From positions 192,001 to 256,000 of the forward strand of contig CAWHDT010000003.1 of assembly GCA_963828195.1 (NCBI GenBank): a stretch of 64,000 bases of DNA. The letters run 5' to 3'. Each line of letters begins with the position of its first letter. Position 1 is the first letter of the stretch. A program made the translations under genes and the position numbers. The notes under the pieces are model-generated. The model had not been told where the DNA came from. It ran no database searches and worked only from the letters and a program-made list of their open reading frames with translations. Below, piece after piece: positions 4,700 to 36,606 of this stretch. Source of the stretch: Candidatus Bathyarchaeota archaeon. Lineage in GTDB: Archaea; Thermoproteota; Bathyarchaeia; Bathyarchaeales; Bathycorpusculaceae.

Positions 4700-4927
4700 C
4701 ACGTTGGGGAAATTTGAGCCTAATCTTGAGGATTGAAAAATCTATAACGGGTTTTTACGAAGACGTCTTTATTGAATCTAAATGACTAGAAGGGCTTAAG
4801 AGGAGACCTATGAAGAAACTTCAGCCTATCAGTCAAGCAAAACCTCGGCGGCAAAGTTCAATGAATATGCGAGCAGGCTACCAAGTTACTCTTGAGTTAC
4901 AACAGTTACAGAAGTTAAAAGTTCAAG

Positions 4928-5032
4928 TTAGGCGCGAATTTTTTTTGACCCGTTATTCAAACCCTTCAGTATTTTAGCATCCTCATCAATTATGCGCAGT
5001 GCAATTTCCATAGGGTCTTTACAATTAGCCAT
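4928..5032 (-). CDS. 34-aa microprotein (not in the ORF track)
   Basis: MANCKDPMEIALRIIDEDAKILKGLNNGSKKIRA* starts 2 nt after the stop of 5035-5259; a frameshifted paralogue lies at 3496-3600. Confidence 0.5.
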   Translation of the reverse strand: MANCKDPMEIALRIIDEDAKILKGLNNGSKKIRA

Positions 5033-5034
5033 TT

Positions 5035-5259
5035 TCAAGCCACTGGCGCCAAATAGTTCACCGGAGGTTCCGCGCATATTTGAACAATCAGAACTTCCGC
5101 GTTACCGAAACGTTTCAGAGCCTCTCTATGGGCATCTTCAAAACTTGCAAAAAATCCCCTGTTAGCCTGATCTTTAATCAATACAAATTCGCCGCTATGT
5201 TTCTTTGCAAGTTCTTTCTCAATCCTATGATAATGCTCAACATCTTCTTCAAACGGCAT
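5035..5259 (-). CDS. Small DUF5678-like protein
   Basis: ELAKKHSGEFVLIKD...FEDAHREALKRFG pattern. Confidence 0.6.
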   Translation of the reverse strand: MPFEEDVEHYHRIEKELAKKHSGEFVLIKDQANRGFFASFEDAHREALKRFGNAEVLIVQICAEPPVNYLAPVA

Positions 5260-5342
5260 AACATTTCACACTAAGAAACTCATTACCTAACTTTCTTACA
5301 AATCTTGCGCCTAACATACTGAGACGTTATTTTGATATAACT

Positions 5343-6155
5343 TCAGGCAAAATTGTATTTTTTACTTACAAACCACATGAAGCCATCAACGGTTGTCAAA
5401 TCACTATGAGTTTCCTGCGCTATGTCGTTAAGGATTTTGTTAACTCTCTTATAACTCTCCCCAAAATCATCGCTTGGGAAAGTCGATCGATGCAACTTCT
5501 TCAACGTATCTACCGTTCGGCTATTCCAAACACCATATTTTTCATTGTTAAATGTATGCAGCAACGCTGTGACTATTCCTTGACCAATCCCTGTAACCTT
5601 TACAGCCCCCTGCAATGCACTACCAACTCTCTTCCCAATTTCGATGTTCTCATTCTGTAAAGTGATAAGTAGTTTAGCTATACTTTGAGGATGCTCAATG
5701 GCATTAGTGGCTGCCCGCTCTAACATAGTCCACGAAAAGTTATTCCTAAAATGAAGCCAACTCTCAAAATTGCGCTGAAGAGCCTTAAGATTGTTCAATC
5801 TTTCAGGAGCAAACTTGTATCTGTATTCAACATATACTTCTTTACGTCTTTTGACCCATAGCTCAACACTCGAAAATGTTCTTCCTGCACTAATTTCTAT
5901 CGGGTTATTCAAATAAACTGGCCAGAGTTTTTCAACATATGCCGATGAAGGCGGCAAATTTTCACGTTTCTCTCCTTCATTAATATCTGGGTCGTCGATG
6001 TAGACTTTTTCTAGAAAGCCGCCGCAACTAGCCTCTGAACAAAACATTTTTCGGTTGTTTGCTTCTGGCGCTACTTCTTGCAAGCATTTAGAGCATCTAT
6101 ACTTTATCATATGCAACACTTCAGCAATTGGCTGGCTTTTATTGAACGTTTGCAA
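5343..6155 (-). CDS. Hypothetical protein: N-terminal Zn ribbon plus a helical (HhH-like) domain seen in defence/nuclease-associated proteins
   Basis: CSKC...CSEASC; GIGQGIVTALLH...KYGVWNSRT...VDGFMW. Confidence 0.5.
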   Translation of the reverse strand: MQTFNKSQPIAEVLHMIKYRCSKCLQEVAPEANNRKMFCSEASCGGFLEKVYIDDPDINEGEKRENLPPSSAYVEKLWPVYLNNPIEISAGRTFSSVELWVKRRKEVYVEYRYKFAPERLNNLKALQRNFESWLHFRNNFSWTMLERAATNAIEHPQSIAKLLITLQNENIEIGKRVGSALQGAVKVTGIGQGIVTALLHTFNNEKYGVWNSRTVDTLKKLHRSTFPSDDFGESYKRVNKILNDIAQETHSDLTTVDGFMWFVSKKYNFA

Positions 6156-6209
6156 ATATTGGCTTTGCGGTAATTAGGCGCTTTTGATAGTTGGGATAGC
6201 CAATTTACG

Positions 6210-7514
6210 CTATCTGACTTTTTTTCTTTTCTTTTTCACCGCTAAGGGTATCATTTCTTCTAATTGTGCATTCTCGGACAAGTCACTTTCTTCTTTGTCT
6301 TTTGCTAGTTCTTGCATTGGAAGTGAATCCTGAATAATGCAGTCCATGCCATTTGAGATTCCTGAATACGCATTGTTCAACTGAACTTGCAGGTTCTTTC
6401 TCTCTTTCCAAAGTCTCCCATGAGCTTTTTCTTCCGAATCTTGCAAATCTGACATTTTTTGATAAACTTGATGAAGCTTTTCTAATAACCCTGAGAATTC
6501 TTGGCTTCTTATATAGTCATACAACTTGGCTTCTTTACCTTCCCGGTCCTTCCGACTTTCTGACTGCTTAGAAATCTCAATCATTGATCTTCGTATTTGT
6601 TTTACAACATCTATAACTATACATGGGTGGCAGAGTAAAATTCCTTCTTTCTCTCCAAAAAACCCGTTTTTAATATCTTTCTTGGGTAAGTTATTTGAAA
6701 CAATGATGACATAATCTGTTGCATGAATATCTTTGTATTTCTTCGCTTTTTCTAAGTCTTTACTAGTGACACTTTCTGCCTGTTTGTTATCATAAACTAT
6801 TGGCATCTCAATCGTTTTTGTGGCAGTTCTAATCTGCTGTATAATGTCCCCCATTGATGTGCCTCGCTTCTGACGTTTGAAAAAGTCTTGTTGGAACTCC
6901 TGAGTAAGATTAGCGTATAAGTCAATTTCTCCAGCTTCACCTTTCAACTCTGACTGACTCTGTTGTAACTGCTTCTTAAGGTCTTCAATATCACGTTGAA
7001 AACGTCCCAATTGGATATCCCGCTCTTTAACATCATTTCTTAAACCTGAAATTTCAACGTCGGCTTTGGACTTGCCTTCATCAAAAGCAAGCTTTTTTAA
7101 ACGCGCTTGCTCTTTTATCAAAATCTTAAGTTGTTTTTCTTTTTCTTGAAGAGCTTTTTTTCCTTCAACCTTAAGTTTATTCTCTATAATGGTGAATTGC
7201 TTTTGGTTGTCTTTGTTCATTTTTTCATAATTTCTTTTTAGCTCGCCAATCTGAGTTTTGTATAAGTCCTCCATTTCTCTTCGTAGTGTTTTTTTATTCT
7301 CTTCAAACGTTGCCTTTAGGTCTGCAACTTCTTTCTTGTTACCTTGGTTAGCATTCAGAAGTTTCGTTTCGTAGTCCTCTTTGCACTTTCTGTAATCCTC
7401 ACCGTACGTTTCTGAAACCTTTTTTTTGAGGTCTTCAAGTGCTTGTTTATAGTCAGAGTTGGTTAGAGTAGAGTGGCATAAGGGGCATTTGAATTCTGTT
7501 GATTCAGTAGACAC
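6210..7514 (-). CDS. DUF2130-like coiled-coil protein with C-terminal nuclease-like domain
   Basis: N-terminal CPLC, long coiled coil, KGEAGE, GDIIQ and IVYDNK motifs. Confidence 0.7.
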   Translation of the reverse strand: MSTESTEFKCPLCHSTLTNSDYKQALEDLKKKVSETYGEDYRKCKEDYETKLLNANQGNKKEVADLKATFEENKKTLRREMEDLYKTQIGELKRNYEKMNKDNQKQFTIIENKLKVEGKKALQEKEKQLKILIKEQARLKKLAFDEGKSKADVEISGLRNDVKERDIQLGRFQRDIEDLKKQLQQSQSELKGEAGEIDLYANLTQEFQQDFFKRQKRGTSMGDIIQQIRTATKTIEMPIVYDNKQAESVTSKDLEKAKKYKDIHATDYVIIVSNNLPKKDIKNGFFGEKEGILLCHPCIVIDVVKQIRRSMIEISKQSESRKDREGKEAKLYDYIRSQEFSGLLEKLHQVYQKMSDLQDSEEKAHGRLWKERKNLQVQLNNAYSGISNGMDCIIQDSLPMQELAKDKEESDLSENAQLEEMIPLAVKKKRKKVR

Positions 7515-7769
7515 GATAAATTCCCTTTACGAAATGGAGTTGTTTTATTTGGCAAATAAGCTTTGTGAATTCAGGAGATAGTCAAAAAAAGCTTGAAACA
7601 ATGGCTGAATAGCAGTTTTAAAGGCAAAGAAGAGAATAAACTAAGGCAAAAGTGACGTTGCCATATCAGCGAATACCCTTGAATAAGTCTATGTTCTGTC
7701 TTGTTGGTTCGTGTTGTTTATATATTGGAATATTGACTATGGATGTGCAAAAGAAGGAATATCTTAGAT

Positions 7770-8210
7770 ATGGGTTCCAAGTCACCAAGAGGCGAATTTG
7801 CCGCAAGGCAACTAGCGAAGAAACGGAAGAATTTCCGTTGGTCTGATCGTTACTTTAACAGACGTATGCTTAGACTAGATGAGAAAGTTGACCCGATGCA
7901 GGGTGCACCCCAATCGCGGGGTATCGTGCTGGAAAAAGTCGGGGTTGAATCAAAACAGCCCAACAGCGCCATCCGCAAATGCGTCCGCACACAACTCATC
8001 AAAAACGGCAGAGTCATCACCGCTTTCCTCCCCGGAGACGGCGCACTCAACGTTGTTGACGAACACGACGAAGTAGTTGTGGAGGGCATCGGCGGCACCA
8101 GAGGCGGCGCAATGGGAGACATCCCCGGAGTCCGCTGGAAAGTCGTCATGATTAACGGCGTCTCACTAAACGAGCTCGTTTACGGGCGCAAACAGAAACC
8201 GGCAAGGTAA
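7770..8210 (+). CDS. rps12: 30S ribosomal protein S12 (uS12)
   Basis: [10 protein letters not shown] and GDIPGVRW motifs; start MGSKSPRG at 7770. Confidence 0.97.
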
Positions 8211-8215
8211 TAGTT

Positions 8216-8806
8216 ATGAGCACAACAACATTAGCCCAACCGCAAGACATCAAACTTTTCCAAAAATGGACCTTCAAAGACATAGCAGTCGTAGACATCG
8301 GCTTGCAGCGCTACCTCAACTTAACCCCGATGGTTGCACCCCACAGCATGGGACGCCATGAGCACCAGCGATTCCGAAAAGCCAAACTCAACGTTGTGGA
8401 ACGCTTAATCAACAGTTTAATGCGCAGCGGCAAAAACGCAGGCAAAAAAGCCAAAACAACCAACATCGTTAAGGAAGCATTCGAAATAATCTATTTACGC
8501 ACGGGCAAAAACCCAATAGAAATTTTGGTTAAAGCAGTCGAAAACGCTTCACCATGCGAAGACACCACAAGGGTCAGCTACGGCGGAGTCGTATACCACC
8601 TATCCGTTAACGTAGCGCCGCAACGCAGAATCGACCTGGCAATACGCCACATCAGCGAAGGCGCAAGAGCCTCAAGCAAAAACAACCCGCGGAGCATACA
8701 AGAAACCCTCGCAGACGAACTGGTATTGGCAGCGGCAAAAGACATCAAAAGCGCAGGCATCGCCAAACGCAACGAAATCGAACGCGTCGCACAGTCAAGC
8801 AGATAA
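8216..8806 (+). CDS. rps7: 30S ribosomal protein S7 (uS7)
   Basis: GRHEHQRF, VERLIN and ERVAQSSR motifs; directly follows rps12. Confidence 0.97.
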   Translation: MSTTTLAQPQDIKLFQKWTFKDIAVVDIGLQRYLNLTPMVAPHSMGRHEHQRFRKAKLNVVERLINSLMRSGKNAGKKAKTTNIVKEAFEIIYLRTGKNPIEILVKAVENASPCEDTTRVSYGGVVYHLSVNVAPQRRIDLAIRHISEGARASSKNNPRSIQETLADELVLAAAKDIKSAGIAKRNEIERVAQSSR

Positions 8807-9085
8807 AACATCTTTTTCCATTATCTGGAAATTTCCGCGGGGAATTTTTTGAACCGCAATGAATCTTAAAGTAGCGGAAGCTGGGATTAAGCAGAGGTAT
8901 GCCTAACCTGTGCAGTAAGCAATCTTCTTTCAAAGAGAATCACCCTAAAAACGCCAATTACCCTTAAAAAAGCGCTCAAACCATTTTCAGCAGATTTCTG
9001 CAATTGAAAAGGCTCGTATTTGGGGGGAAATTTGAAAAAACTTTAATAACTATTTAAGACAAGAACTCTTTCTCACAGAGCATTA

Positions 9086-10090
9086 ATGTTCGGAAGGGAT
9101 AAAGTTACTTTGAAAAAGATCATAACAGCCGTAATTATTGTGGCTTTAGTCTTAGCTGCATTTACCGTTTTATCGACAACGCCAGTGAAGGCGCAAGCGT
9201 CAGAAGCCCAAGTTCTGAGCTACACTTGGTACGTGGCTCCGGCAGACACCTCCTTGGCAGAGTACGCTGGTGATTTGGTCGCCGTTGGCGAAATACAGAA
9301 CGTCGGCTCAGGCGTCCTCGCTCAAGTGGACGTCTCAGGCACGGCTTATAACGGAACAGGTTCCAACGCCACGGTTTTGAATCAAAACAGTAATTCAGTT
9401 TTCGGAAATAATCTGCTCCCTGGCCAGAAGGCTCCTTTCTACATAGATTTCCCGCCTGAAGATAGCGTTACTCAAGATCAAACCTACATTCCTTTAGTAA
9501 GTAACGTTTCCGTTGTAGTATCATACGTCGAAGACTCCAACTCAACTCCATACACGGACTTAACAACTACAGGCGTCACTTCTTTTCTGGATAACACTGG
9601 AACCTTCAATGTTCAAGGAACCATACAGAACACAGGCACCCAAACAGTTCAACAAATAGTGGCTGTTACAACGTTTTATAATGCTACAGGGCAAGTTGTA
9701 TCTTTAAACTTCACAAATTACTTAACAGATGCATCTGGCAGTAGTTCGCTCACCCCAGACGACTCTATGCAGTTTACAGCAACACCTACAGACAATTCAG
9801 CTGCCCTATCAAGTGAAATAGCAAATTACTCAGTACTAGTCGAGTCCTCACTGCCCGTATCAACTACTCCCACATCTACCCCGACAACCACGGCGACGCC
9901 TTCATCCTCAAGCACCACCACACCCACTCAAACTCCAACCCAAATATCTCCAGCCGTAACCTATGGCATAATAGCCATAGTTGTGGTAGTTGTAGTTGCA
10001 CTCGTAGCTTTGCTGTTCCTCAGAAAGCGCGGCACACACGCAGAGGCTGAACCTCCGCCACCGCCGCCCCCACCGCCGCCTCCAACCTAA
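9086..10090 (+). CDS. Membrane-anchored surface protein with two FxLYD-like Ig domains
   Basis: Signal peptide, repeated GEIQNVG/GTIQNTG...TFYN...LxP motifs, Thr linker, C-terminal TM and poly-Pro tail. Confidence 0.7.
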   Translation: MFGRDKVTLKKIITAVIIVALVLAAFTVLSTTPVKAQASEAQVLSYTWYVAPADTSLAEYAGDLVAVGEIQNVGSGVLAQVDVSGTAYNGTGSNATVLNQNSNSVFGNNLLPGQKAPFYIDFPPEDSVTQDQTYIPLVSNVSVVVSYVEDSNSTPYTDLTTTGVTSFLDNTGTFNVQGTIQNTGTQTVQQIVAVTTFYNATGQVVSLNFTNYLTDASGSSSLTPDDSMQFTATPTDNSAALSSEIANYSVLVESSLPVSTTPTSTPTTTATPSSSSTTTPTQTPTQISPAVTYGIIAIVVVVVVALVALLFLRKRGTHAEAEPPPPPPPPPPPT

Positions 10091-27032: not shown

Positions 27033-27177
27033 AAAATCGCCGACAATTATAAATCCGAATCAAGCAAATAACAATTTTGGAAACCAATGTCCCCCCATGA
27101 AACTGCCGTGAAAGCTTCAATAACATTCAAAACGTAATGCCTCATTATTTCCTTATAGAATCGTAAAAGTGAAAAAT

Positions 27178-27612
27178 ATGTATAGAACTGGCGTCGCGAA
27201 TCTTCCGTTTCACGGCGGCAAAGCTCCTTCATGGCTTACCGTGCGCATGCGTAAGTTAGCCAAAGAAATAGCGGATATTATGGTTGAGGAGCAGGGCACA
27301 GCCAAGTTTATTGAGCGGTTATCTGACCCCTACTGGTTTCAAGCATTCGGCTGCGTCTTAGCCTATGACTGGCACAGCAGCGGAGTAACAACCGTCGTCA
27401 CCGGCATCCTCAAAGGCGCCCTATCGCCGGAAGAGCACGGCATCGCCGTCTGCAGAGGAAAAGGCAAAACCTCAAGAAAAACACCCGCCGACATAGCTTT
27501 GGCTGGCGAAAAATTCGGTTTTTCAGAAGAAACAATCAAAACGCTTACCTACAACAGCAAAATGGCTGCGAAAATAGACAACACCGCCATCCAAGCAGGA
27601 TACCAGCTTTGA
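27178..27612 (+). pseudogene. DUF763 family gene, 5' part (interrupted by the integrated element)
   Basis: GVANLPFHGGKAP, RLSDPYWFQ, DWHSSG and KIDNTAIQAGYQL, then a stop exactly at the element boundary. Confidence 0.92.
27605..27610. repeat. attL core AGCTTT
   Basis: TACC-AGCTTT-GAATAC; the same hexamer occurs at 32238-32243. Confidence 0.8.
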
Positions 27613-27643
27613 ATACATGTTTTTTTCTCGATTACCATGCTTT

Positions 27644-28942
27644 TCACGTGAGCCTACTGTATAGCTTACAGGTTTTTCCGTTCTCGTCAAGCATGGTATC
27701 AAACAGTTCATAGCACATTTGCCTAGCTTCTTCTGCTTGCTCTATCGTATAGACTCGCATTGTCTCATAGCTGCAGTTTTCGTCATCAAAGTCGCCAAAA
27801 TATTTCTCTGTTGAACTTAACCGTTTATGCCCTAGTCGAGCTTGTACTTTTCTCACGTTGAACTGAGTTTTCTTATAGGTTTGGTCTGCAAAATATCGCC
27901 GAAAACTGTGATGATGGATATTAAGCAAATTTGGCATCTGAAGTTTGTCAGCGATTCTTTTCCTGGAACGTGCAAAAGTTGACTGTAGAGCGCGTTTATT
28001 CGGGTTAAAGACGTATGGCGCGTACTTTTTTGGCAAAGATTGAAGCATTGTAATAGTCTGTTGACTAACGTGGATTTTGCGAGATCTGCTTCCCTTTTCT
28101 GGGTGGTTGATATAGACTATTTGACCCGTTACGTCTATCTCATTCCATTGTAACCGCGAAACCTCACCTATTCGAGCGCCGCAATCTGCCAACAACATAC
28201 AAAGCGCTCTTTGTTGTTTGCCGAGATTCTGAAGTAATGTTGTAACTTCATAGGGTTTTGGCGTGTATTGCTGTTTAGGCTCATAGGCGATTTTGGGTTT
28301 TTTAAAAGGAATATCAAACGCCCCGGCGTAACTGATGTATGCCTGAACGTAATGGAATTTTGATGCTGGCGAGAACTGTTCCGTCATCAGAACCGTTAAA
28401 AGACTGTCTGGATTGCTTAAGTTTACACCTTTTTTTCTAAGCGCATTGAGACGTAAAACTCTATGTGTTATGGTTGCGTCTGCTATACCGCGTTTCTTCT
28501 CTTTCCATGCGTATTCTATTAGACTATCTTTTTCTCCCACGCAAACAGTCTTTTCTGCTTGCGATTCCAAATTTTTCGTCTCCTTGACGCATATTTGAAA
28601 CTTACTATTATAGAAAGGTAAAGTATTTAACTCTTTTTCTACAATAGAAAGGCATGATGCATTATGAGAACCTACATCTTCACCGAAAACGAGAGACGCA
28701 CCGTTAGAAACTTTCTCAACGGCACCATCACACGAAGCGATCCCAACCTCATGACGATTCTTTCCAGAATCAAAAGTTTCATCGACCTTTCCAGCGATAT
28801 TGACCTTTACGTCAAGTTGAGAGAAACGGTACCCACAGTTTCGGCATAAATAACGCTGTACTTGAGAACCATTATCTAGATAGCGTAAGCCGTCTTTGTA
28901 ATGACGATCTGAACTGCATTGAGGGCAACAACTAACAACCAT
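27644..28942 (-). CDS. Tyrosine recombinase/integrase with N-terminal Zn ribbon
   Basis: All catalytic residues present: GARIGE (R), PEKGS (K), HSFRR (HxxR), LGH and TEKY (Y). N-terminal CPQC...CRNC. Confidence 0.93.
   Translation of the reverse strand: MVVSCCPQCSSDRHYKDGLRYLDNGSQVQRYLCRNCGYRFSQLDVKVNIAGKVDETFDSGKNRHEVGIASCDGAVEKVSNGASLVFGEDVGSHNASCLSIVEKELNTLPFYNSKFQICVKETKNLESQAEKTVCVGEKDSLIEYAWKEKKRGIADATITHRVLRLNALRKKGVNLSNPDSLLTVLMTEQFSPASKFHYVQAYISYAGAFDIPFKKPKIAYEPKQQYTPKPYEVTTLLQNLGKQQRALCMLLADCGARIGEVSRLQWNEIDVTGQIVYINHPEKGSRSRKIHVSQQTITMLQSLPKKYAPYVFNPNKRALQSTFARSRKRIADKLQMPNLLNIHHHSFRRYFADQTYKKTQFNVRKVQARLGHKRLSSTEKYFGDFDDENCSYETMRVYTIEQAEEARQMCYELFDTMLDENGKTCKLYSRLT
28664..28849 (+). 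CDS. 61-aa ORF nested antisense within the integrase N-terminal linker
   Basis: ATG start and a helical amphipathic sequence (MRTYIFTENERRTVRNFL...). A TATA-like TATTTAA lies ~35 nt upstream. Confidence 0.5.
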   Translation: MRTYIFTENERRTVRNFLNGTITRSDPNLMTILSRIKSFIDLSSDIDLYVKLRETVPTVSA

Positions 28943-29212
28943 CTTTCTGCTACCAAAACACAGCGAGGCTACCTATCTTTAAATAATTTTCCGTTAAAAA
29001 TTATAGGGTTTTAGGCAGTACAAAAAAATAACATTTATTCAGAAATTTAGCTAAAATTAAGCCTTAAATTGTAAAATACCACTGTTTTCAGCTAATTTAT
29101 TGAAATTTTCACAAGCCAAAAAAATAGACAACTAGAAAACACAACTCGTGTGTTTTATCCAAAAATTTTGCTGGAGGAGGGAGGGGTAGCAGATCCTCCT
29201 AACCCCAGGCGA

Positions 29213-29323
29213 TTAGGCGCCCGCGAAGGTAATAAAAAATGAGTCGAACGCATATAAGACCCACTTCGCCCAGACAATGAGCGTGACACGGACGCCCAAC
29301 CAGCACCTATACAAGGTACCCAT
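29213..29323 (-). CDS. 36-aa hydrophobic micropeptide of the element (not in the ORF track)
   Basis: MGTLYRCWLGVRVTLIVWAKWVLYAFDSFFITFAGA*; its ATG lies 6 nt after the stop of 29330-29677. Confidence 0.35.
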   Translation of the reverse strand: MGTLYRCWLGVRVTLIVWAKWVLYAFDSFFITFAGA

Positions 29324-29329
29324 GAAGAT

Positions 29330-29677
29330 TTAAGGATTTTTGGTTTTCCAAGGCTTTTTCTGGTATCCCAGAGCATGAGCTTTGTCTGAAAGCAAGACTT
29401 TTCCGCCCGCGATGCAAGAATCGGTCGCAGCAGCTTGCGCGTTATCAATGTCCATGCCTGAAACTCTGAATTTTGAGAACTCTGACATTTCGCACATTGG
29501 ATTAGCCCGCGCGCCGTAAGCGATCAGTAACGCTTCTACGTCCAATGGTGCCTCTATACCTTCAGTTTCAGTCAAAACAGGAGCTGATTCCTCAGCTTTC
29601 GACTCTGCTAAATCGTCCAAACCAAGCTTGTAGCTTCGGGTTTTAATTTTCCCTGGCTCATAAGCATCAAGTGACAT
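29330..29677 (-). CDS. Element hypothetical protein (115 aa)
   Basis: ATG start with a GAGGT RBS upstream. Confidence 0.65.
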   Translation of the reverse strand: MSLDAYEPGKIKTRSYKLGLDDLAESKAEESAPVLTETEGIEAPLDVEALLIAYGARANPMCEMSEFSKFRVSGMDIDNAQAAATDSCIAGGKVLLSDKAHALGYQKKPWKTKNP

Positions 29678-30174
29678 TTTTACATCATTACCTCAAAAAC
29701 ATGTATAAACTACAAGATATATTAGCTTTTCCGAAAATTTTTACAGTAGTCACTTTCCTATCAAACGTCCAAAAAAAGACCATACCCCATGAGAACGTTT
29801 CCCATAGCGCAATTTCTGGCCAGTAAACAACTGTTTAGAGCGTCTGTACAACCACATACACCCACTATATGGCTTACGTCCGTTCACTTGTATTCGACTG
29901 AACCTGATGCCCTAGGCGTGCCTAACAAAAAAGACCCGTAGCTACGAGTTGACAACAGGCGAGCCTGTCATGTAGACAACCCATCTTTTTCAACTCAAAC
30001 CCCTACCTGGACACAACAAAGTACTCGACTCTTTTTGACCTAACAGGAAAAACCGATTTTTTACATCAGGGCAGTCTTCAAAAAACAAAAATGAAGAAAT
30101 ATGAACGGTTCCCATCCACGACTAGCACTTTTTACACGAAAAAAGCCAGACTAGGAAGCAAAAAACATCACTCG

Positions 30175-30363
30175 TCAATATTTCCAGTCCTTAGTTCCGC
30201 ATGCAGGACACCGAAGAGGCAGCTTTTCAGATCGCGCACGCCAAACCCGACCGCAGTGAGCACATTTACATAACAACCGCCTTTTAGCACGCCGATGCCT
30301 CGGCGCCAACGGAACAGAACTCCGCCTAATCCGATATCTACGCCCATAATGATACCTGTACAC
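30175..30363 (-). CDS. Element Arg-rich Zn-ribbon protein
   Basis: CKCAHCGRVW...PLRCPAC...W; starts immediately after the upstream stop. Confidence 0.75.
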   Translation of the reverse strand: MYRYHYGRRYRIRRSSVPLAPRHRRAKRRLLCKCAHCGRVWRARSEKLPLRCPACGTKDWKY

Positions 30364-30645
30364 TCAATGAAACTCCTCAAAATTAGCAAGATCACGATAC
30401 AATTCATCTAAAAGCTCCTTTGCGTCATGAACTAAGGGCAGCGCCTCAAATTGGTAATGAGAACGCCTCAGTTCATCCAAAATAAGGATAATTTGGCTTG
30501 TTTTTACAACAACATCAGCCTCACGGACGATCTTTTCCGTTAAAACCTCTTCCTCTCCCACGTCATCCACCTCTGTATACTTGGCTACTCCAATTTCTAC
30601 CTGAAAAACCTCTTTTTCCCTCAGCCTTTCCACCTTATCCACCAT
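30364..30645 (-). CDS. Element acidic hypothetical protein (~93 aa)
   Basis: ATG at 30645 (MVDKVERL...) lies just downstream of the Rep stop. Confidence 0.65.
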   Translation of the reverse strand: MVDKVERLREKEVFQVEIGVAKYTEVDDVGEEEVLTEKIVREADVVVKTSQIILILDELRRSHYQFEALPLVHDAKELLDELYRDLANFEEFH

Positions 30646-30668
30646 GAAAGCTACTTTTCTACTCAATA

Positions 30669-31907
30669 TTATCCACCTGGATCCTTTTTCTTCCAACGCT
30701 CCAAATAGATCCAACCTTCACGTGAAGGCAAGTAAGCAACGTACCCCTCTTCTTCCTCGGCAAGCCCTAATTTTTTGTCGCCAACATAAACGATATCCTG
30801 CAGGACGTGACCCCATGGACACTGCTCTTCTTTTTTGCCGTGTAATTCTGACTTTTTAAGGGGAAGTTTGGAATATCCCAAGCTACCAAACCAAGTTACT
30901 ACGTGCCCATGACCAGGAGGCACGCTTGCATGCCCCAACTCATAGAAAATCGTACCAGCTAGGCTATTCCGTAACCCTTTGTTTTTCTGGAAAAAACCCG
31001 CATTCTTTTGAACTTTCAAGGCATTACTACGAGTAGCAACAATACATACGTCACCCTCTTTGTAAAGGGAAGTTTGCAATACTGGAGTACCCTTACAATG
31101 TACCCAACCATACGTGTAAACCTCAGCTATTTTATCTCCGTCAATATCCTTAGAATAACCTACAAAATGAAAATGAGGGCTAAAATAAGGCTTTCCATGA
31201 TTAAACCGTTTCGAGTGAAAAACACAACTGCCACCTTCAAAACCGACCAGCTTAGCGGCTATTAACGAAAAACGCTTCATTTTTGCGACGCTCCAAGTGT
31301 AAAATTTGGCTGGAACACTCACAAAATAGTGTAGTTGCTTACCTTCCGTCCCGTTTTTTTCATCATAAGCAACAAATCGTTTAAGCTGCCTAGCAGTTTC
31401 GCGCGCACGCCAACGCTGCAGGCAAATCGGACAGCTAGGCCTATGGCACCAAAAACGCTGAACCCTAACAAAAGCACCATTAGCCAAACATTCATCATGG
31501 ACGACAAGATTTTGGTGAATCGCATCATCCAACTGTTTAGGTTCATGGTCTTCCAAGCAGCCTACAAAAAAAGGCATCCCACACGTAGTTTTAGCGTGCC
31601 CATGACCAACCAAATCCCAGTCAGCTTCAAAAATCTGGAAAGGCAGATCAGCCAAAATAGTGTTACTTGGGATATTACTGATAATAGCCTCGTCGTCGCC
31701 ACTTGGCGACGTGGGCGGGATACCCGACGCTAAAAAACGTACTTCATCAAACTCTAGGACTTGCTCATCGGTCAATTTTAAAATCTGCTTTCCAACTGCC
31801 GAAAGAACACCAGTATTTTTGAAATCGTTAGCTTCTTGGATTAAACCAGCAGACCATAACTTACAATAAATATAGTTGGATCGATCCAGCTCCTGAAGAA
31901 CTGACAA
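30669..31907 (-). CDS. HUH-superfamily rolling-circle replication initiator (Rep)
   Basis: Zn motif CHRPSCPIC, motif I HYFVSVP, VFHSKR, HUH motif II SPHFHFVG and candidate motif III Tyr in TIFYELGH. Confidence 0.8.
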   Translation of the reverse strand: MSVLQELDRSNYIYCKLWSAGLIQEANDFKNTGVLSAVGKQILKLTDEQVLEFDEVRFLASGIPPTSPSGDDEAIISNIPSNTILADLPFQIFEADWDLVGHGHAKTTCGMPFFVGCLEDHEPKQLDDAIHQNLVVHDECLANGAFVRVQRFWCHRPSCPICLQRWRARETARQLKRFVAYDEKNGTEGKQLHYFVSVPAKFYTWSVAKMKRFSLIAAKLVGFEGGSCVFHSKRFNHGKPYFSPHFHFVGYSKDIDGDKIAEVYTYGWVHCKGTPVLQTSLYKEGDVCIVATRSNALKVQKNAGFFQKNKGLRNSLAGTIFYELGHASVPPGHGHVVTWFGSLGYSKLPLKKSELHGKKEEQCPWGHVLQDIVYVGDKKLGLAEEEEGYVAYLPSREGWIYLERWKKKDPGG

Positions 31908-31908
31908 C

Positions 31909-32241
31909 CTAGTGACGCCTCTCTGCTGCTCTTGCAGAGTCAGCCTCTTTTGAGGCTGTAAACGACTCTTTTTTAGAAGTAGCCTTTATTTTAGCCTCGT
32001 AACGATGAATCCAATTGTCAATTCTCTTAGATTGCCATTTCCAACCCGTACCTTCAAGCTCAGTCTTTAAAATGATGGAATAGGCTAATCTCTGCGGCCA
32101 TAACCAAAAACCTTGACTCTCAAAACCTTCTCGCAAAGCATTAATTGCGAGACGTAACTGAGTATTAGCCCACTCTTTCGAACCATAAAAAAAAGAGGGA
32201 GAATTTGCGCGGGAGATTTCTCCATTGACGTCATTTAAGCT
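31909..32241 (-). CDS. 3' part of an attP-spanning element gene (its start codon is at 27636-27638 on the other end of the element)
   Basis: The frame is open with no ATG from the stop up to the attR core. On circularisation it fuses with MVIEKKTCIQ to give 120 aa. Confidence 0.6.
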   Translation of the reverse strand, partial: SLNDVNGEISRANSPSFFYGSKEWANTQLRLAINALREGFESQGFWLWPQRLAYSIILKTELEGTGWKWQSKRIDNWIHRYEAKIKATSKKESFTASKEADSARAAERRH

Positions 32242-32243
32242 TT
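32238..32243. repeat. attR core AGCTTT
   Basis: TTTA-AGCTTT-ATCACCAC; the host codons TAT CAC CAC resume here. Confidence 0.8.
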
Positions 32244-32944
32244 ATCACCACGCCTTCTTAGTGACCAAGGATGAGAAGTGGGCGGTGATTCAGCAGGGCA
32301 TGAGCGCGGAAGACCAGACAGCAAGACGCTACCACTGGCTCTCCGACAAAGTAACGGATTTTGTTGTGGAACCAGAAAACGCCATAGTTGGCGACGTAAA
32401 AAGGGAAATAGCTTTGAACATGGTGGCAAAAACCAGCGAAGCTGCACGAAGAGCAAGCGTGGACCTTTCCAAGGAACCCACCCGCAAACTAATGAAACTA
32501 ATCCAATCAACAGCCAAACCGCTTGAGCAAACGTCCCTGCAAGCATGGCTTCCCCAAACGGATGACCCTTGGAAGCAAACCCTAACCAGCCTCAATATGC
32601 CCCGAAACATAAACTGGGATACCCTTAGCCGTGTCTACGAATTCCAACCAAACAACTACGAAGAGCTTCTCAGCGTTAAAGGCGTGGGACCAGCCACAGT
32701 GCGCGGCTTAGCGTTGGTTGCTGAGCTGGTTTATGGCGAGAAACCCAGCTGGGAGGACCCCGTTAAATTCAGCTTCGCCTACAGCGGCAAAGACGGCGTC
32801 CCCTTCCCCGTTGACCGCAAAGCAATGGATGAATCAATCCAAATCCTCAAACAATCCGTGCAGGAAGCAAAAATCGGCGACAAAGAAAAACTTCTCTCGC
32901 TTCAAAGGCTTAGACGGTTTGTTCCCGAAAATGCAAATAGCTAA
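32243..32944 (+). pseudogene. DUF763 family gene, 3' part
   Basis: YHHAF...WAVIQQGM, ARRYHW, GVGPATVR, DPVKFSFA.SGKDGVPFPV motifs. Confidence 0.92.
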
Positions 32945-33013: not shown

Positions 33014-33185
33014 GGGGTCGTAGTCTAGACAGGTATGACGACGGGCTCCAGAAGCAAGCAACGGGTTTGCTGACTCCGCTCGGAGAATGACGAAGTTCTG
33101 GAGCGTGTCTAGAGAAACCCGTAAAGAACCGCCTCGCGTGGTTCTTGGGTAAAGGTCGTCGGTTCAAATCCGGCCGGCCCCACCA
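33014..33185 (+). tRNA. tRNA-Trp(CCA) with two introns (37/38: ~33052-33116; 43/44: 33123-33152) and encoded CCA
   Basis: Acceptor GGGGTCG/CGGCCCC-ACCA, anticodon arm ACGGG-CTCCAG^A-CCCGT and T arm GTCGG-TTCAAAT-CCGGC. The second intron has an ACCC/GGGT helix with two 3-nt bulges. Confidence 0.92.
33052..33116 (+). ncRNA. Box C/D guide RNA within the tRNA-Trp intron
   Basis: Guide ACGGGTT before CTGA (33070-73) targets C39 by the N+5 rule. ATGACGA (33087-93) is a C-like box, and TTCTGGAGC is antisense to the anticodon loop. Confidence 0.8.
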
Positions 33186-33655: not shown

Positions 33656-34801
33656 CTATATCTTGTTTGAATGATTCTTATTTTTTCGCAAGTAAAGCGT
33701 TGTTGCAACAGTGGCTAAGGTGAATGCGGCTAAGACCATAATAAATGATGGGAACTCTGGAGTAGCTGTTGCTGTCTGGGAGGTTGTAGAAGTCGGTGAG
33801 GACGTTGGCGTCGGTGAAGTGCCGGGGTTTGTTGATGAAGATGAGGAAGGTGTTGGCGACGTGGTCGAAGACGGATTGGGCGAAGCAGTAGCCCCTGCTT
33901 GAATTGGAGGATTGCTGCCGTAATTATAAAGCAGTAGCTGACCGTTTCCTCCTTGACCATAAGCGTTTCCTCCGTTAATACTACAATTTCCCTGTGTTAT
34001 GCCGCCGCTTCCATATGCTAGAAGTATAACGCCACCACCTCCCCCACCGCCGCCTCCACCACCCAACACCATGCCTGGAGTAAATAAGACGCCGTTTTGA
34101 CCGTTTGCCAAGATATTACCATTGTTTGAGATTTCATTTGCTTGAATATAGATTCCATATGCTCCTGATCCCCCGTATCCCGATACTCCAGTTGTGTCTT
34201 CCCCACCACCTCCGCCTGCTCCGGACAAATAATTGGCAAAACCATTCGCATACATTGTTTGTATGAAAGAATTGGTCAAGGTAGGAGTTGTTGGGGTGGA
34301 GCCATTGGTCGGGCCATTATAATTCGTACCACTTGGTTGGTATCCTCCAAATCCTCCCTGAGCCAAGGTTGCGCCTCCATTCCCTCCGTTTATAATGTTG
34401 TAGCCAGCTCCGCCGCCTGATCCTCCATAAGAGTTGGGGCAAGATCCACCATTCCGGCTGTATTCTCCACCGTTTTCTAAATACCCGGTTATTACTGTCC
34501 CGTCATTAGTAAAAAATCCTGAACAAATTATACTGAACCCATTCGTTGTTAGGGCTACTCCCTGTTGGATTGTTAAACTGGAGCATGAAAGGTCTGATGT
34601 AATCGTTGTATTTGATGAAATGGTGATTTCTTGTAAAGTTTGTGATGAAGCAAGGGTTATAGATAGCGGTCCAGACGTGTCAGTTCCCTTTACGACATTA
34701 TTCGAAAAATTAGCAGAGACTAAAAGTAATAGTGCTATTAGAAAAACAGAGATTTTACAAAAACTAATTAATTTAGGACCAAATATGCTTTGAAATTTCA
34801 T
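33656..34801 (-). CDS. Gly-rich secreted surface protein with PEF-CTERM-like sorting signal
   Basis: Signal peptide, GGGGG repeats, Ser/Thr/Pro linker and TPEFPS-TM-basic tail. Confidence 0.8.
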   Translation of the reverse strand: MKFQSIFGPKLISFCKISVFLIALLLLVSANFSNNVVKGTDTSGPLSITLASSQTLQEITISSNTTITSDLSCSSLTIQQGVALTTNGFSIICSGFFTNDGTVITGYLENGGEYSRNGGSCPNSYGGSGGGAGYNIINGGNGGATLAQGGFGGYQPSGTNYNGPTNGSTPTTPTLTNSFIQTMYANGFANYLSGAGGGGGEDTTGVSGYGGSGAYGIYIQANEISNNGNILANGQNGVLFTPGMVLGGGGGGGGGGGVILLAYGSGGITQGNCSINGGNAYGQGGNGQLLLYNYGSNPPIQAGATASPNPSSTTSPTPSSSSSTNPGTSPTPTSSPTSTTSQTATATPEFPSFIMVLAAFTLATVATTLYLRKNKNHSNKI

Positions 34802-35211: not shown

Positions 35212-36606
35212 CTATTTTATAATCATATTAATTCCCATTTTCCGACTATTTTCTTTTTTTTCGACGATAACTGAAAACAAGACTATGATCATCACGACAA
35301 TTAACATAGTTCCTAGCATTTGGCACGAAAATTCTGGAACTGCAGGAGATGGTGAAGCAGTTATTGCTGGAGAAACACTATCTGTAGGTGTAGGCGTTGC
35401 TGATTGCGGAGAAGTTTGTATCGGAGTGGACACAGGTGTGGGCGCTTGCGTAGGTGCTTCGGTAGGGGAAGACGCTGCAGTTAGATTCACTGTCACTACC
35501 GCAGTATTGGATTGAGCAGAAGTTGCGCCTGAACTGTCAGTAACCGTACAAGTAACCGAGTAAGTACTAGCAGAGGCAGGAGCAAAACTAAACGTTGACG
35601 AAATCTGACCAGACTGGGCCGTCCCATCTGCATACCACTGATAAGACAGGTAAGATCCAGAACCGCCGCTGGCAGTAGCAGTAAACACCTGAGTCTGACC
35701 AACAATCATTGTCCAAGAAGTAGGCGAGACACTCGCAGCCAGAACACCCGTGCTTATCGCCGACACCGAATTACCTCCATTATTTGTTACATAGGCGTAT
35801 GCGCCGCTAGGGGAAACAGCGACACTGGTAGGTTCGCTTAACCCAGTTATTGTTGCAGTCACCGTGTTTGAAGCGGTACTTATCACAGACACCGAATTGC
35901 TTCCATAATTTGTTACATACGCGTATGCACCGTTTGGCGTAATAGCAATGCCTTCAGGATTTGTTCCAACTGGAACAGTCGCCGTAACCGTGTTCAAAGA
36001 TGTGCTTATCACCGAGACCGTACCGCTGCTGCCTTTACTTAAGACGTAGACGTATGCACCGTTAGGAGTTACTGCCACGCCATCAGGAACATTTAAACCG
36101 GTTACCGACGTCGTTACCGTATTAGACGATGTACTTATCAGCGAGACCGTACCGCTACCTTCGTTTGTAACATAGACGTAATCACCGTTGGGCGTTACAG
36201 CCACTCCAGCAGGGCCGTTTCCAACGTTTATTATCGTCGTCACCGCATTCGTAGCTGTACTTATAACCGACACCGTACCGCCTTGACTATTCGTCACATA
36301 GGCATATGCGCCGTTAGGCGTAATAGCAACATCCTCAGGAACAAGTCCAACGGTTATCGTCGCTATCACTGCGTTTGAAGATGTGCTTATAACCGACACT
36401 GAATCGCCAAATTCATTTATTACGTAGGCGTATGCGCCATTAGGGGTTAAAGCAACACCAGAAGGATTGCTTCCAACGGTTATCGTTGCCGTCGCTGTAT
36501 TCTGAGCTTGAACTGGCTGAGACAATAATGAGACAGCGCAGAACAAGAAGAGGATGGCGAGAAGGAGGTAACCAACGCCCAATGTCTTTGTTGTCACTCG
36601 CTTCAT
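35212..36606 (-). CDS. YVTN/YncE beta-propeller surface protein with PKD-like domain and PEF-CTERM
   Basis: Six TPNGAYAYVTN...VSVIST repeats; VPEFS-TM tail. Confidence 0.9.
   Translation of the reverse strand: MKRVTTKTLGVGYLLLAILFLFCAVSLLSQPVQAQNTATATITVGSNPSGVALTPNGAYAYVINEFGDSVSVISTSSNAVIATITVGLVPEDVAITPNGAYAYVTNSQGGTVSVISTATNAVTTIINVGNGPAGVAVTPNGDYVYVTNEGSGTVSLISTSSNTVTTSVTGLNVPDGVAVTPNGAYVYVLSKGSSGTVSVISTSLNTVTATVPVGTNPEGIAITPNGAYAYVTNYGSNSVSVISTASNTVTATITGLSEPTSVAVSPSGAYAYVTNNGGNSVSAISTGVLAASVSPTSWTMIVGQTQVFTATASGGSGSYLSYQWYADGTAQSGQISSTFSFAPASASTYSVTCTVTDSSGATSAQSNTAVVTVNLTAASSPTEAPTQAPTPVSTPIQTSPQSATPTPTDSVSPAITASPSPAVPEFSCQMLGTMLIVVMIIVLFSVIVEKKENSRKMGINMIIK

Follow-up and report, generated by a model that had tools for sequence, protein, structure and literature searches.

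A small integrative element of a Bathyarchaeota archaeon with its recombination core inside the gene that precedes a putative Rep

The element and its boundaries

The window analysed here, a stretch of 64,000 nucleotides from a Candidatus Bathyarchaeota archaeon (assembly GCA_963828195.1, contig CAWHDT010000003.1, positions 192,001 to 256,000), harbours a mobile element of 4.6 kb that is read on the minus strand and consists of positions 27611-32237 plus one copy of the core hexamer AGCTTT. It encodes a tyrosine integrase and a putative replication initiator (Rep), and carries directly upstream of the latter a small open reading frame (ORF) whose two pieces lie at opposite ends of the integrated element. 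Coordinates of element genes refer to the minus strand throughout.

The insertion point is in the middle of a host gene for a DUF763 protein, at codon 147 of ~380, with 6 bp of identity only. AGCTTT is the sole sequence common to both junctions in matching position, its left copy (27605-27610) marking the integrase-side junction and its right copy (32238-32243) the junction by the small ORF and Rep. The N-terminal half of the host gene, listed as a 147-aa ORF (27169-27612, plus strand), matches positions 1-139 of the 319-position Pfam profile PF05559 (E 1e-57). The C-terminal half matches positions 136-319 (E 2.8e-63) and lies in a 239-aa ORF that opens at a TTG of the element (32225-32944, plus strand).

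An empty site is represented by a 429-nt contig of run X1, which connects 27604 to 32238 with 0 mismatches and skips 4633 nt, six of its letters being assignable to either side. Element-internal contigs are also present in this run and differ by at most one letter, in one contig. In run X4, one contig crosses the integrase-side junction (27508-27738). The DUF763 gene has 15 matching places outside its own genome; nine of these, all same-genus loci, were read (L093-L101), and in all nine the gene is uninterrupted (..AIQAGYQLYHHAFL..), as the joined flanks predict. Since the empty-site contig and the intact host genes confirm the boundaries, the element is mobile or was so recently, and the crossover takes place inside the 6-bp core. 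A single copy is found in the 2.83-Mb assembly of 9 contigs. A candidate for a second element-interrupted DUF763 gene, in a genome of the same genus (G413, locus L102, G413:C18, 657-1782), was rejected; it has a frameshift that leaves two overlapping ORFs near the same region, and the element is absent.

The initial annotation had stated that integration breaks both the host gene and an element gene. Both are indeed split, but the two DUF763 halves remain ORFs because the element provides a stop codon for one and an in-frame TTG for the other. The N-terminal half ends at a TGA made up of the last T of the core and two element bases, and the TTG that opens the C-terminal half is located 13 nt before the core. 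Both halves might thus be produced as a split protein. In a related element described below (L085, 8572-9363), an element ATG located 27 codons upstream likewise opens the C-terminal DUF763 half.

The integrase and the gene order of the circle

The integrase (27644-28942; 432 aa) has an N-terminal zinc ribbon. It matches Pfam PF00589 with E 5e-20 and 72.4 bits, against a curated cut-off of 27.1, as well as PHROG integrase families (E 1.9e-25). The translation displays the motifs ARIGE, HHHSFRR and LSSTEKY, all of which are conserved in L085 and which are putatively the catalytic Arg..His-x-x-Arg..Tyr. The ORF stays whole when the element is integrated, as the left core lies 34 nt past its stop codon. 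The element therefore departs from the SSV1 type, a distinction that the initial annotation had rightly drawn. A TATA-like sequence, TTATTTAAAG, can be read at 28977-28986, ~39 nt before the integrase ATG, and is a candidate for the integrase promoter. Joining of the two ends at the core would give a circle in which integrase, a 120-codon small gene, Rep, a 93-aa gene and a zinc-ribbon gene succeed each other with gaps of 5, 1, 23 and 0 nt.

A small gene in two pieces

The near piece of the small ORF (31909-32241) was delimited from its translation, homologues and alignment, together with a count of start codons and a structural model. The frame that ends with the stop codon at 31909-31911 is open for 110 codons, up to the AGC codon of the right core (32241-32239), and host TGA and TAA codons stand just before it. 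Its lone ATG, GTG or TTG codon is a TTG at codon 36 (position 32136), downstream of a conserved WAN motif. The far-end piece (27549-27638) rests on translation, on an alignment in fixed register with a free plasmid, L003, and on counterparts in two other integrated elements, L085 and L087. It starts with an ATG at 27638-27636, 5 nt past the integrase stop, and places this ATG and 10 codons ahead of the core codon AGC (MVIEKKTCIQS); in the integrated state the ORF continues into host DNA, for 29 codons in total. Because both pieces translate the core AGC as Ser, the joined frame is continuous (10 + 110 = 120 codons), and the core (AAAGCT on the coding strand) falls in codons 10-12. Translation thus agrees with the initial annotation, which had described an ORF before Rep without an ATG and open exactly to the attR core, with TAA and TGA supplied there by the host, an ATG after the integrase stop (27636-27638) reading into attL, and a continuous 120-aa ORF upon joining at AGCTTT.

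The same annotation had cautioned that the fusion might be fortuitous, since the chance of a frame match alone is about 1 in 3. The observations go well beyond this figure. When the 10 far-end residues are compared in fixed register with the corresponding residues of L003, the BLOSUM62 score is 21, a value attained in 42 of 100000 shuffles and in none of 100000 random 10-mers drawn from the element. The joined window pieces score 48 against L003 across the junction and 68 against the N-terminus of a homologue, P0014, neither score being reached in any of 5000 shuffles. P0014 is an uninterrupted ORF of 127 aa, called from an ATG, whose N-terminus matches both window pieces. The in-frame join is more than chance, given the recurrence of the split in L085 and L087, the register match with L003 and the coverage of the WAN region by the homologues.

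A HMMER scan detected 78 homologues of the small ORF at E values up to 1e-3, and of the 89 Rep-bearing loci that were fetched, 26 have the gene immediately before Rep. The core of the protein starts at K/D-W-A-N. It had been asked whether homologues begin at the equivalent of the TTG at 32136. This is not the case as a rule: 20 of the 21 homologues aligned with the window copy cover the WAN region. P0011, the closest relative, is called from the same Leu codon as the window TTG and is the sole such case among the aligned homologues. In an AlphaFold model built on P0014, the protein is a three-helix bundle (pLDDT, the predicted local distance difference test score, above 90 for residues 33-92), of which the WAN motif opens helix 1. 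The only start codon in the near piece, TTG at codon 36, follows WAN, and for this reason the window copy cannot yield an intact first helix from any ATG, GTG or TTG of the near end. Internal start-type codons number 0 of 70 in L085 and 1 of 80 in L087, as compared to 62 of 1610 for 22 other loci together, none of which has zero. The scarcity of such codons in the integrative copies is a weak trend.

The physical split of the small gene is a fact of the integrated sequence, and three integrated elements have its layout in common. It is very probable that the split is genuine and that the gene depends on the far-end ATG.

A scan of 400 sampled genomes of the phylum with a profile of the small ORF detected it, among those sampled, in its own genome only, and a search for P0014 in a protein atlas gave no usable match. 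Pfam, PHROG and structure searches did not reveal a DNA-binding family or fold for the small protein.

Related elements and free plasmids

L085 is a related element located at the same position of the same host DUF763 gene, the similarity of the genes being judged by eye. Its far piece, MVIAKKTYIQS, begins 2 nt past the stop codon of the integrase, and AAAGCT is found once more as the core. On the Rep side, the frame is open to host TGA and TAA codons and contains 0 start-type codons in 80 codons. L085 appears to be a mosaic, with a window-like integrase/att module (its integrase is 69% identical to the window integrase over 318 aa) and a replication module like that of L087 (its Rep is 70% identical to the L087 Rep and 28% identical to the window Rep). 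The seam between the two modules is in the N-terminal tail of the small ORF, either at the att core or close to it.

L087 resides at a different locus and shows the same layout, with an integrase 36% identical to that of the window. Its ATG overlaps the integrase stop and opens a 74-codon ORF, the first 31 residues of which are similar to the two window pieces, in the same order (..IEKASIQ..NGDIS..SPPIF..). In the Rep-side copy, stops occur upstream and a start codon ahead of WAN is lacking. The two ends share an imperfect repeat of ~70 bp, in which the exact core could not be set.

The genome with L085 contains, at a distance of 16 kb, a fourth integrated element, L106 (G419:C6:141000-157000, 4893-9482). 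A 16-bp direct repeat marks its two ends and overlaps the last integrase codons, and a tRNA gene (9519-9593) is adjacent. Its small ORF has a Shine-Dalgarno sequence and a TTG start of its own. The N-terminal zinc-ribbon module of the L106 integrase is nearly identical to that of L085 and the remainder is ~35% identical; the L106 Rep reads WRVSGHFH in place of WYFSPHFH.

A free plasmid of ~3.55 kb, without an integrase, is represented by the versions L003, L004 and L006. L003 is presumably circular because the same 81-aa ORF is found at both contig ends. A stretch upstream of its small ORF, in the same frame, matches the window join across the junction. At L003 606-704, and also in L004 and L006, there is a 29-codon ATG ORF that is homologous to the split tail and ends with TAA; one codon past this TAA comes a TGA, after which the small ORF begins with its TTG, and a single frame is used throughout. 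The 29-codon ORF could be a separate leader peptide, or the arrangement could reflect a recent break or read-through.

A contrast emerges among these loci. Those whose small ORF has a local start (L106 and L003) carry stops or a frameshift in the homologous upstream stretch, whereas the window, L085 and L087, which are devoid of a local start, have no interruption of this stretch, which shares its frame with an ATG placed 5 nt or less from the integrase stop.

A contig of run X2, the sample of which comes from another study, shares the att-proximal sequence from 32152 upward. Beyond 32152 it has a different small-ORF body, reading ..IEFLKEG.. as in P0014 and P0016. A variant element at that site, or a recombinant one, seems to be represented by this contig.

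The Rep family

Rep (30669-31907; 412 aa) starts with a TTG located 1 nt past the small-ORF stop. It belongs to a family outside Pfam, and its description as an HUH-type replication initiator relies on invariant motifs, on a structural model and on structural matches. The residues H245-F-H247 and Y322 and five Cys are invariant in 63 aligned members. The model (mean pLDDT 74.8) places the HUH motif on strand 239-252 and Y322 in helix 316-324, which suggests that Y322 is the catalytic Tyr. In a wide VIA-align search, HUH Rep nuclease domains matched residues ~187-349 and took up 16 of the 50 rows, among them 8 of the first 9, with Z scores of 4.0-5.8; these matches are weak, being below the Z 8 caution line and tied with other folds of the RNA recognition motif (RRM) type. 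The matches include the Rep proteins of nanoviruses, circoviruses, smacoviruses and geminiviruses, parvovirus NS1, AAV (adeno-associated virus) Rep and RepB of plasmid pMV158. The top row is SIRV1 ORF119, a Rep-like nickase. Foldseek gave nothing below E 0.1 for Rep. No Pfam or PHROG family was assigned, and a profile search of PDB sequences was without match. Taken together, it is reasonable, if unproven, to regard Rep as an HUH-type rolling-circle initiator.

Relatives of Rep were sought in several collections. Single-protein scans of genomes and viral contigs detected none, and neither did a profile scan of the viral contigs. A word-indexed search gave seven proteins, and 175 were found in metagenome contigs, of which 80 were kept. 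Nine loci are in genomes titled Nitrosarchaeum, Nitrosotalea, Nitrosotenuis, Nitrosopumilaceae, marine group I thaumarchaeote or Bathyarchaeota/Bathyarchaeia. Sixteen of the fetched Rep contigs (L008, L010, L011, L017, L025, L029, L032, L033, L041, L051, L058, L064, L065, L068, L071 and L077) have terminal overlaps that imply circles of 1.6-3.2 kb, and several of them consist of little beyond the small ORF and Rep. Judging from these sequences, Rep would define a new HUH-type family present on many circular contigs of 1.6-3.5 kb.

A conserved DNA block on the Rep side

Between the right core and the WAN codons, the alignment of DNA from the window, L085, L087 (two copies), L106 and L003 reveals a conserved block, GGAGAAATCTCCCGCGC (32207-32223), followed by a C-rich tract and by a run of eight T residues (T8, 32186-32193), the whole spanning 32186-32223 on the minus strand. 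The sequence GGnGAnATCTCC occurs in all five junction copies from integrated elements, on the Rep side, at a distance of 20-55 nt from the core. CGC extends it in four of these copies, and the C-rich tract and T run come next. The counterparts lie at ~9293-9328 in L085, at ~9584-9625 and 14462-14500 in L087 and at ~4920-4960 in L106. The block is nearly identical at the nucleotide level while the small proteins are ~45% identical. In the window, both block and T8 run fall within the N-terminal tail codons of the small ORF. The block and T8 run probably have a cis-acting role. The form GGnGAnATCTCCCGC is partly palindromic (GGAGA..TCTCC).

Proposed mechanism and alternative explanations

The element can be viewed as a 4.6-kb integrative relative of tiny rolling-circle plasmids, whose family core would be the gene for the small three-helix protein and that for the HUH-type Rep. 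In this lineage, the integrase gene would directly precede the small gene-Rep pair, with the crossover in codons 10-12 of the small gene. The likeliest reading of the circle is that one transcript runs from the integrase promoter across the small gene, Rep, the 93-aa gene and the zinc-ribbon gene. Through integration, the ATG is separated, together with the first 10 codons and all that precedes it, from the remainder of the small gene and Rep; the two parts come to lie 4.6 kb apart at opposite ends of the element, and the latter follows two host stop codons. The integrase would still be expressed in this state. The small ORF would be deprived of promoter, ribosome entry and start codon, and Rep would have no co-oriented gene directly upstream, so that Rep and the genes after it would be little expressed or not at all. 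Silence of Rep would keep a nicking initiator off the chromosomal copy of its origin. The initial annotation had likewise proposed that Rep would be severed from upstream transcription and that rolling-circle replication would be blocked in the integrated state. A single recombination event, excision, would re-establish small gene, operon and host gene alike. For this explanation as a whole, that is, split, restoration and silencing of the Rep operon during integration, a probability of roughly 0.6 seems appropriate. The silencing of Rep, considered on its own, is put at slightly short of an even chance; it depends on the lack of a promoter, because Rep has its own GGAGG-like sequence.

A number of observations weigh against this scheme. 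Some concern the tail of the small protein. Residues 1-32 of the P0014 model are disordered, and in L003 two in-frame stops sever the N-terminal stretch from the small ORF, which starts at its own TTG; because the tail is thus cut off, it is dispensable for the small protein. P0014 itself is encoded on a contig of just 1823 bp. No Pfam family was found with the window copy of the small protein taken from the TTG, and no PHROG family with P0014; the model had no structural match below E 0.4 and no significant Foldseek result. Other observations concern the DNA. The block and T8 run fall within 32140-32237, the stretch in which, according to the initial annotation, a Rep promoter would count against the proposal. 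In L106 the conserved block is non-coding and out of frame, and the small ORF downstream of it starts at a codon of its own. The block with its T8 run could be a binding site, a terminator of integrase transcripts or a promoter; the T8 run could thus end integrase transcripts in the circle, or the region could act as a promoter that keeps Rep on in the integrated state. A GGAGG-like sequence precedes the Rep start by ~11 nt in the window, L003, L005, L085 and L087, which means that translation of Rep need not depend on the small ORF. It must also be noted that the window and L085 have a common integrase/att module and are not fully independent cases, and that no circle-junction contig was seen in runs X1-X4, which does not indicate that the circle is absent, X1 being without any cover over 31636-32202.

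The alternative that survives best accepts the split but assumes that Rep has its own promoter in the block and T-rich stretch at ~32186-32223, with similar Rep expression in both states. Integration would then remove just the full-length small protein, or replace it by a 75-aa form initiated at the TTG at 32136. Conservation of GGnGAnATCTCCCGC with the pyrimidine/T run in five junction copies of four integrated elements, L106 included, speaks for this possibility, as do the out-of-frame position of the block in L106, ahead of a small ORF with its own Shine-Dalgarno sequence and TTG, and the GGAGG-like sequence of Rep. In L087, moreover, the T run is followed by TAATTTTTATAATAATG, which is TATA-like by eye. 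The T8-ATGG sequence of the window is presumably a poor match to the archaeal TATA consensus. Transcription from such a promoter would start at or after WAN and would leave untranslated a WAN region that the window, L085 and L087 all preserve in frame and free of stops. Nor does it account for the small ORF of L085, which has no start codon at all. An unregulated nicking Rep beside its own chromosomal origin is expected to be harmful. On balance, this alternative is considered unlikely.

A second alternative holds that the stretch from the core to WAN is untranslated, being a binding region for integrase or Rep or a leader, that its frame with the far ATG is coincidental and that the small protein begins at an unrecognised start codon. 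The disordered state modelled for the N-terminal 32 residues would fit, and so would the conservation of at least 12 bases among elements whose small proteins are ~45% identical, and the non-coding state of the block in L106. However, a stretch of 23-33 codons without stops has been kept in three elements, in the frame of an ATG that stands no further than 5 nt from the integrase stop, and is not kept in the two local-start elements. P0014 is called as a single ORF from its ATG through the stretch, the differences between L003 and the window are synonymous at the ..SRA codons, and ATG, GTG and TTG are all absent before WAN. This alternative is thus improbable. More improbable still is mere decay, by which the small ORF would have been truncated in a copy that is no more than a dead remnant, for although the closest Rep homologue (P0002) seems truncated at its C-terminus and the genome holds one copy only, the six element ORFs are all intact, run X1 contains the empty site, its flanks being identical, as well as contigs from within the element in which no more than one letter differs, and the truncation falls exactly at the core with the missing start intact at the far end, as is also the case in L085.

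The proposal of a split gene restored by excision may be extended to a class. Archaeal integrative mini-plasmids would use recombination as an on/off switch of the replicon, with attP among the initial codons of the gene that heads the replication operon and the tail of that gene's product serving as a seam for module exchange. A single cut would take away promoter, ribosome entry and start codon and would split a host gene as well, and excision would rebuild the two genes. The switch would be reversible, unlike the SSV-type split, because the integrase gene stays whole. This generalization is tentative, more so than the silencing of Rep in the present element. Should the scheme be true, it would be a very economical way to silence a chromosomal rolling-circle replicon without a repressor, and the splitting of element genes in archaea would extend beyond the integrase itself. 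Integration and replication modules would be exchanged at the att seam in the small-ORF tail. A start-less conserved ORF at one end, together with an orphan ATG and a few codons after int at the other, would be a signature for the prediction of attP and of circular forms. The data would also define a new Rep family and a conserved partner protein, on circles of 1.6-3.5 kb from assemblies labelled Bathyarchaeota or Thaumarchaeota/Nitrosopumilaceae. We know of no plasmid tools for these lineages.

Comparison with known systems

Host genes interrupted in mid-ORF by a prophage and precisely restored upon its excision include comK of Listeria and sigK of Bacillus. The DUF763 gene is likewise interrupted in mid-ORF and restorable by excision, but both of its halves remain ORFs.

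In the conjugative element Tn916, according to the account in PMC5812530 of the 1998 work by Celli and Trieu-Cuot, the transfer genes are promoterless in the integrated state and are transcribed through the joint after excision. The gene order and the 5-nt spacing in the present element fit a similar placement of far-end genes downstream of int after excision. Rolling-circle replication of the excised form is a further feature described in that account; for the present element it is predicted. Tn916 as presented there involves coupling of transcription only, no ORF spanning the joint, whereas here the start codon and 10 codons would be brought across the joint, so that integration would interrupt translation too. 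The two also differ in that the present element has an archaeal host, a size of 4.6 kb and no conjugation genes, and in that read-through of its joint is a prediction.

In the integration-dependent immunity of mycobacteriophage BPs and its relatives, PMC4557955 places attP near the 3' end of the repressor gene, and integration removes a degradation tag to give a shorter, active protein, so that a regulatory circuit takes its state from the physical state of the element. Here, too, the attP core lies inside a non-integrase gene beside int and integration alters the product of that gene. Unlike in BPs, the site is at the 5' end and the start codon and the beginning of helix 1 are removed, from which loss of the protein is expected. 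The gene split in BPs encodes a repressor that is active in its integrated form, as far as that source describes it; the integrated form of the present gene has no start codon, and no DNA-binding family or fold was found for its product.

The "suicidal" archaeal integrases of the SSV type are described in PMC8371274 and PMC7253208 as having attP inside the integrase ORF, which integration splits. The present element resembles them in being archaeal and in having its recombination site inside an ORF of its own (compare PMC8371274). The split ORF is not the integrase, however; the latter is a whole type II enzyme in a layout like that of pNOB8 or lambda, and the excision enzyme is kept. For integrated elements of thaumarchaea, PMC6563490 reports short att sites and insertion of 14 of 68 elements in the 3'-distal part of protein genes, and mentions one cryptic element with a rolling-circle Rep like those of SNJ1 and IS91. 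Short att sites, a tyrosine integrase, a protein-gene target and the relatedness of the archaea are common to these elements and the present one. The latter differs from those described in PMC6563490 by its insertion at codon 147 of ~380 with 6 bp of identity, and by a Rep of another family.

The proposed logic combines the expression logic of Tn916, the attP-in-gene logic of BPs and the split ORF of SSV-type elements, and in the present element a non-integrase gene is split at its 5' end while the integrase stays whole. A limited literature search, supplements excluded, found no description of attP in the 5' end of a gene of an archaeal replication operon.

Other features of the element and its surroundings

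Downstream of Rep, the ORF list contains an ORF of 116 aa from a TTG, or of 93 aa from an ATG at 30645 (30364-30714), with no Pfam or PHROG family. It is followed by the 62-aa zinc-ribbon ORF (30175-30363), whose GTG start abuts the stop of the preceding gene; its zinc-ribbon Pfam matches are weak, the best having an E of 7.8e-5, below the curated cut-off. T-runs directly follow its stop codon. The non-coding stretch of ~500 nt that comes after the operon (29678-30174) is, from its sequence, a candidate for the terminator and origin region. The remaining ORF of the list, of 115 aa (29330-29677), matched no Pfam or PHROG family, and in the fetched loci a homologue was found only at the window's own locus (L001). 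An inverted-repeat scan of the element gave nothing beyond three short palindromes.

ARAGORN did not find tRNA genes in the window, L085 or L087. An Rfam match of 38.5 bits indicates a tRNA gene of 169 nt at 33014-33182 (plus strand), 70 nt past the host gene, that ARAGORN misses and that probably carries an intron. This gene was not chosen as a target by the element. Two large ORFs of secreted or surface type adjoin the locus (33656-34801 and 35212-36606, minus strand). One is Gly/Ser/Thr-rich with a C-terminal membrane anchor, and the other has "YAYVTN"-type repeats and a Pro/Thr-rich stalk.

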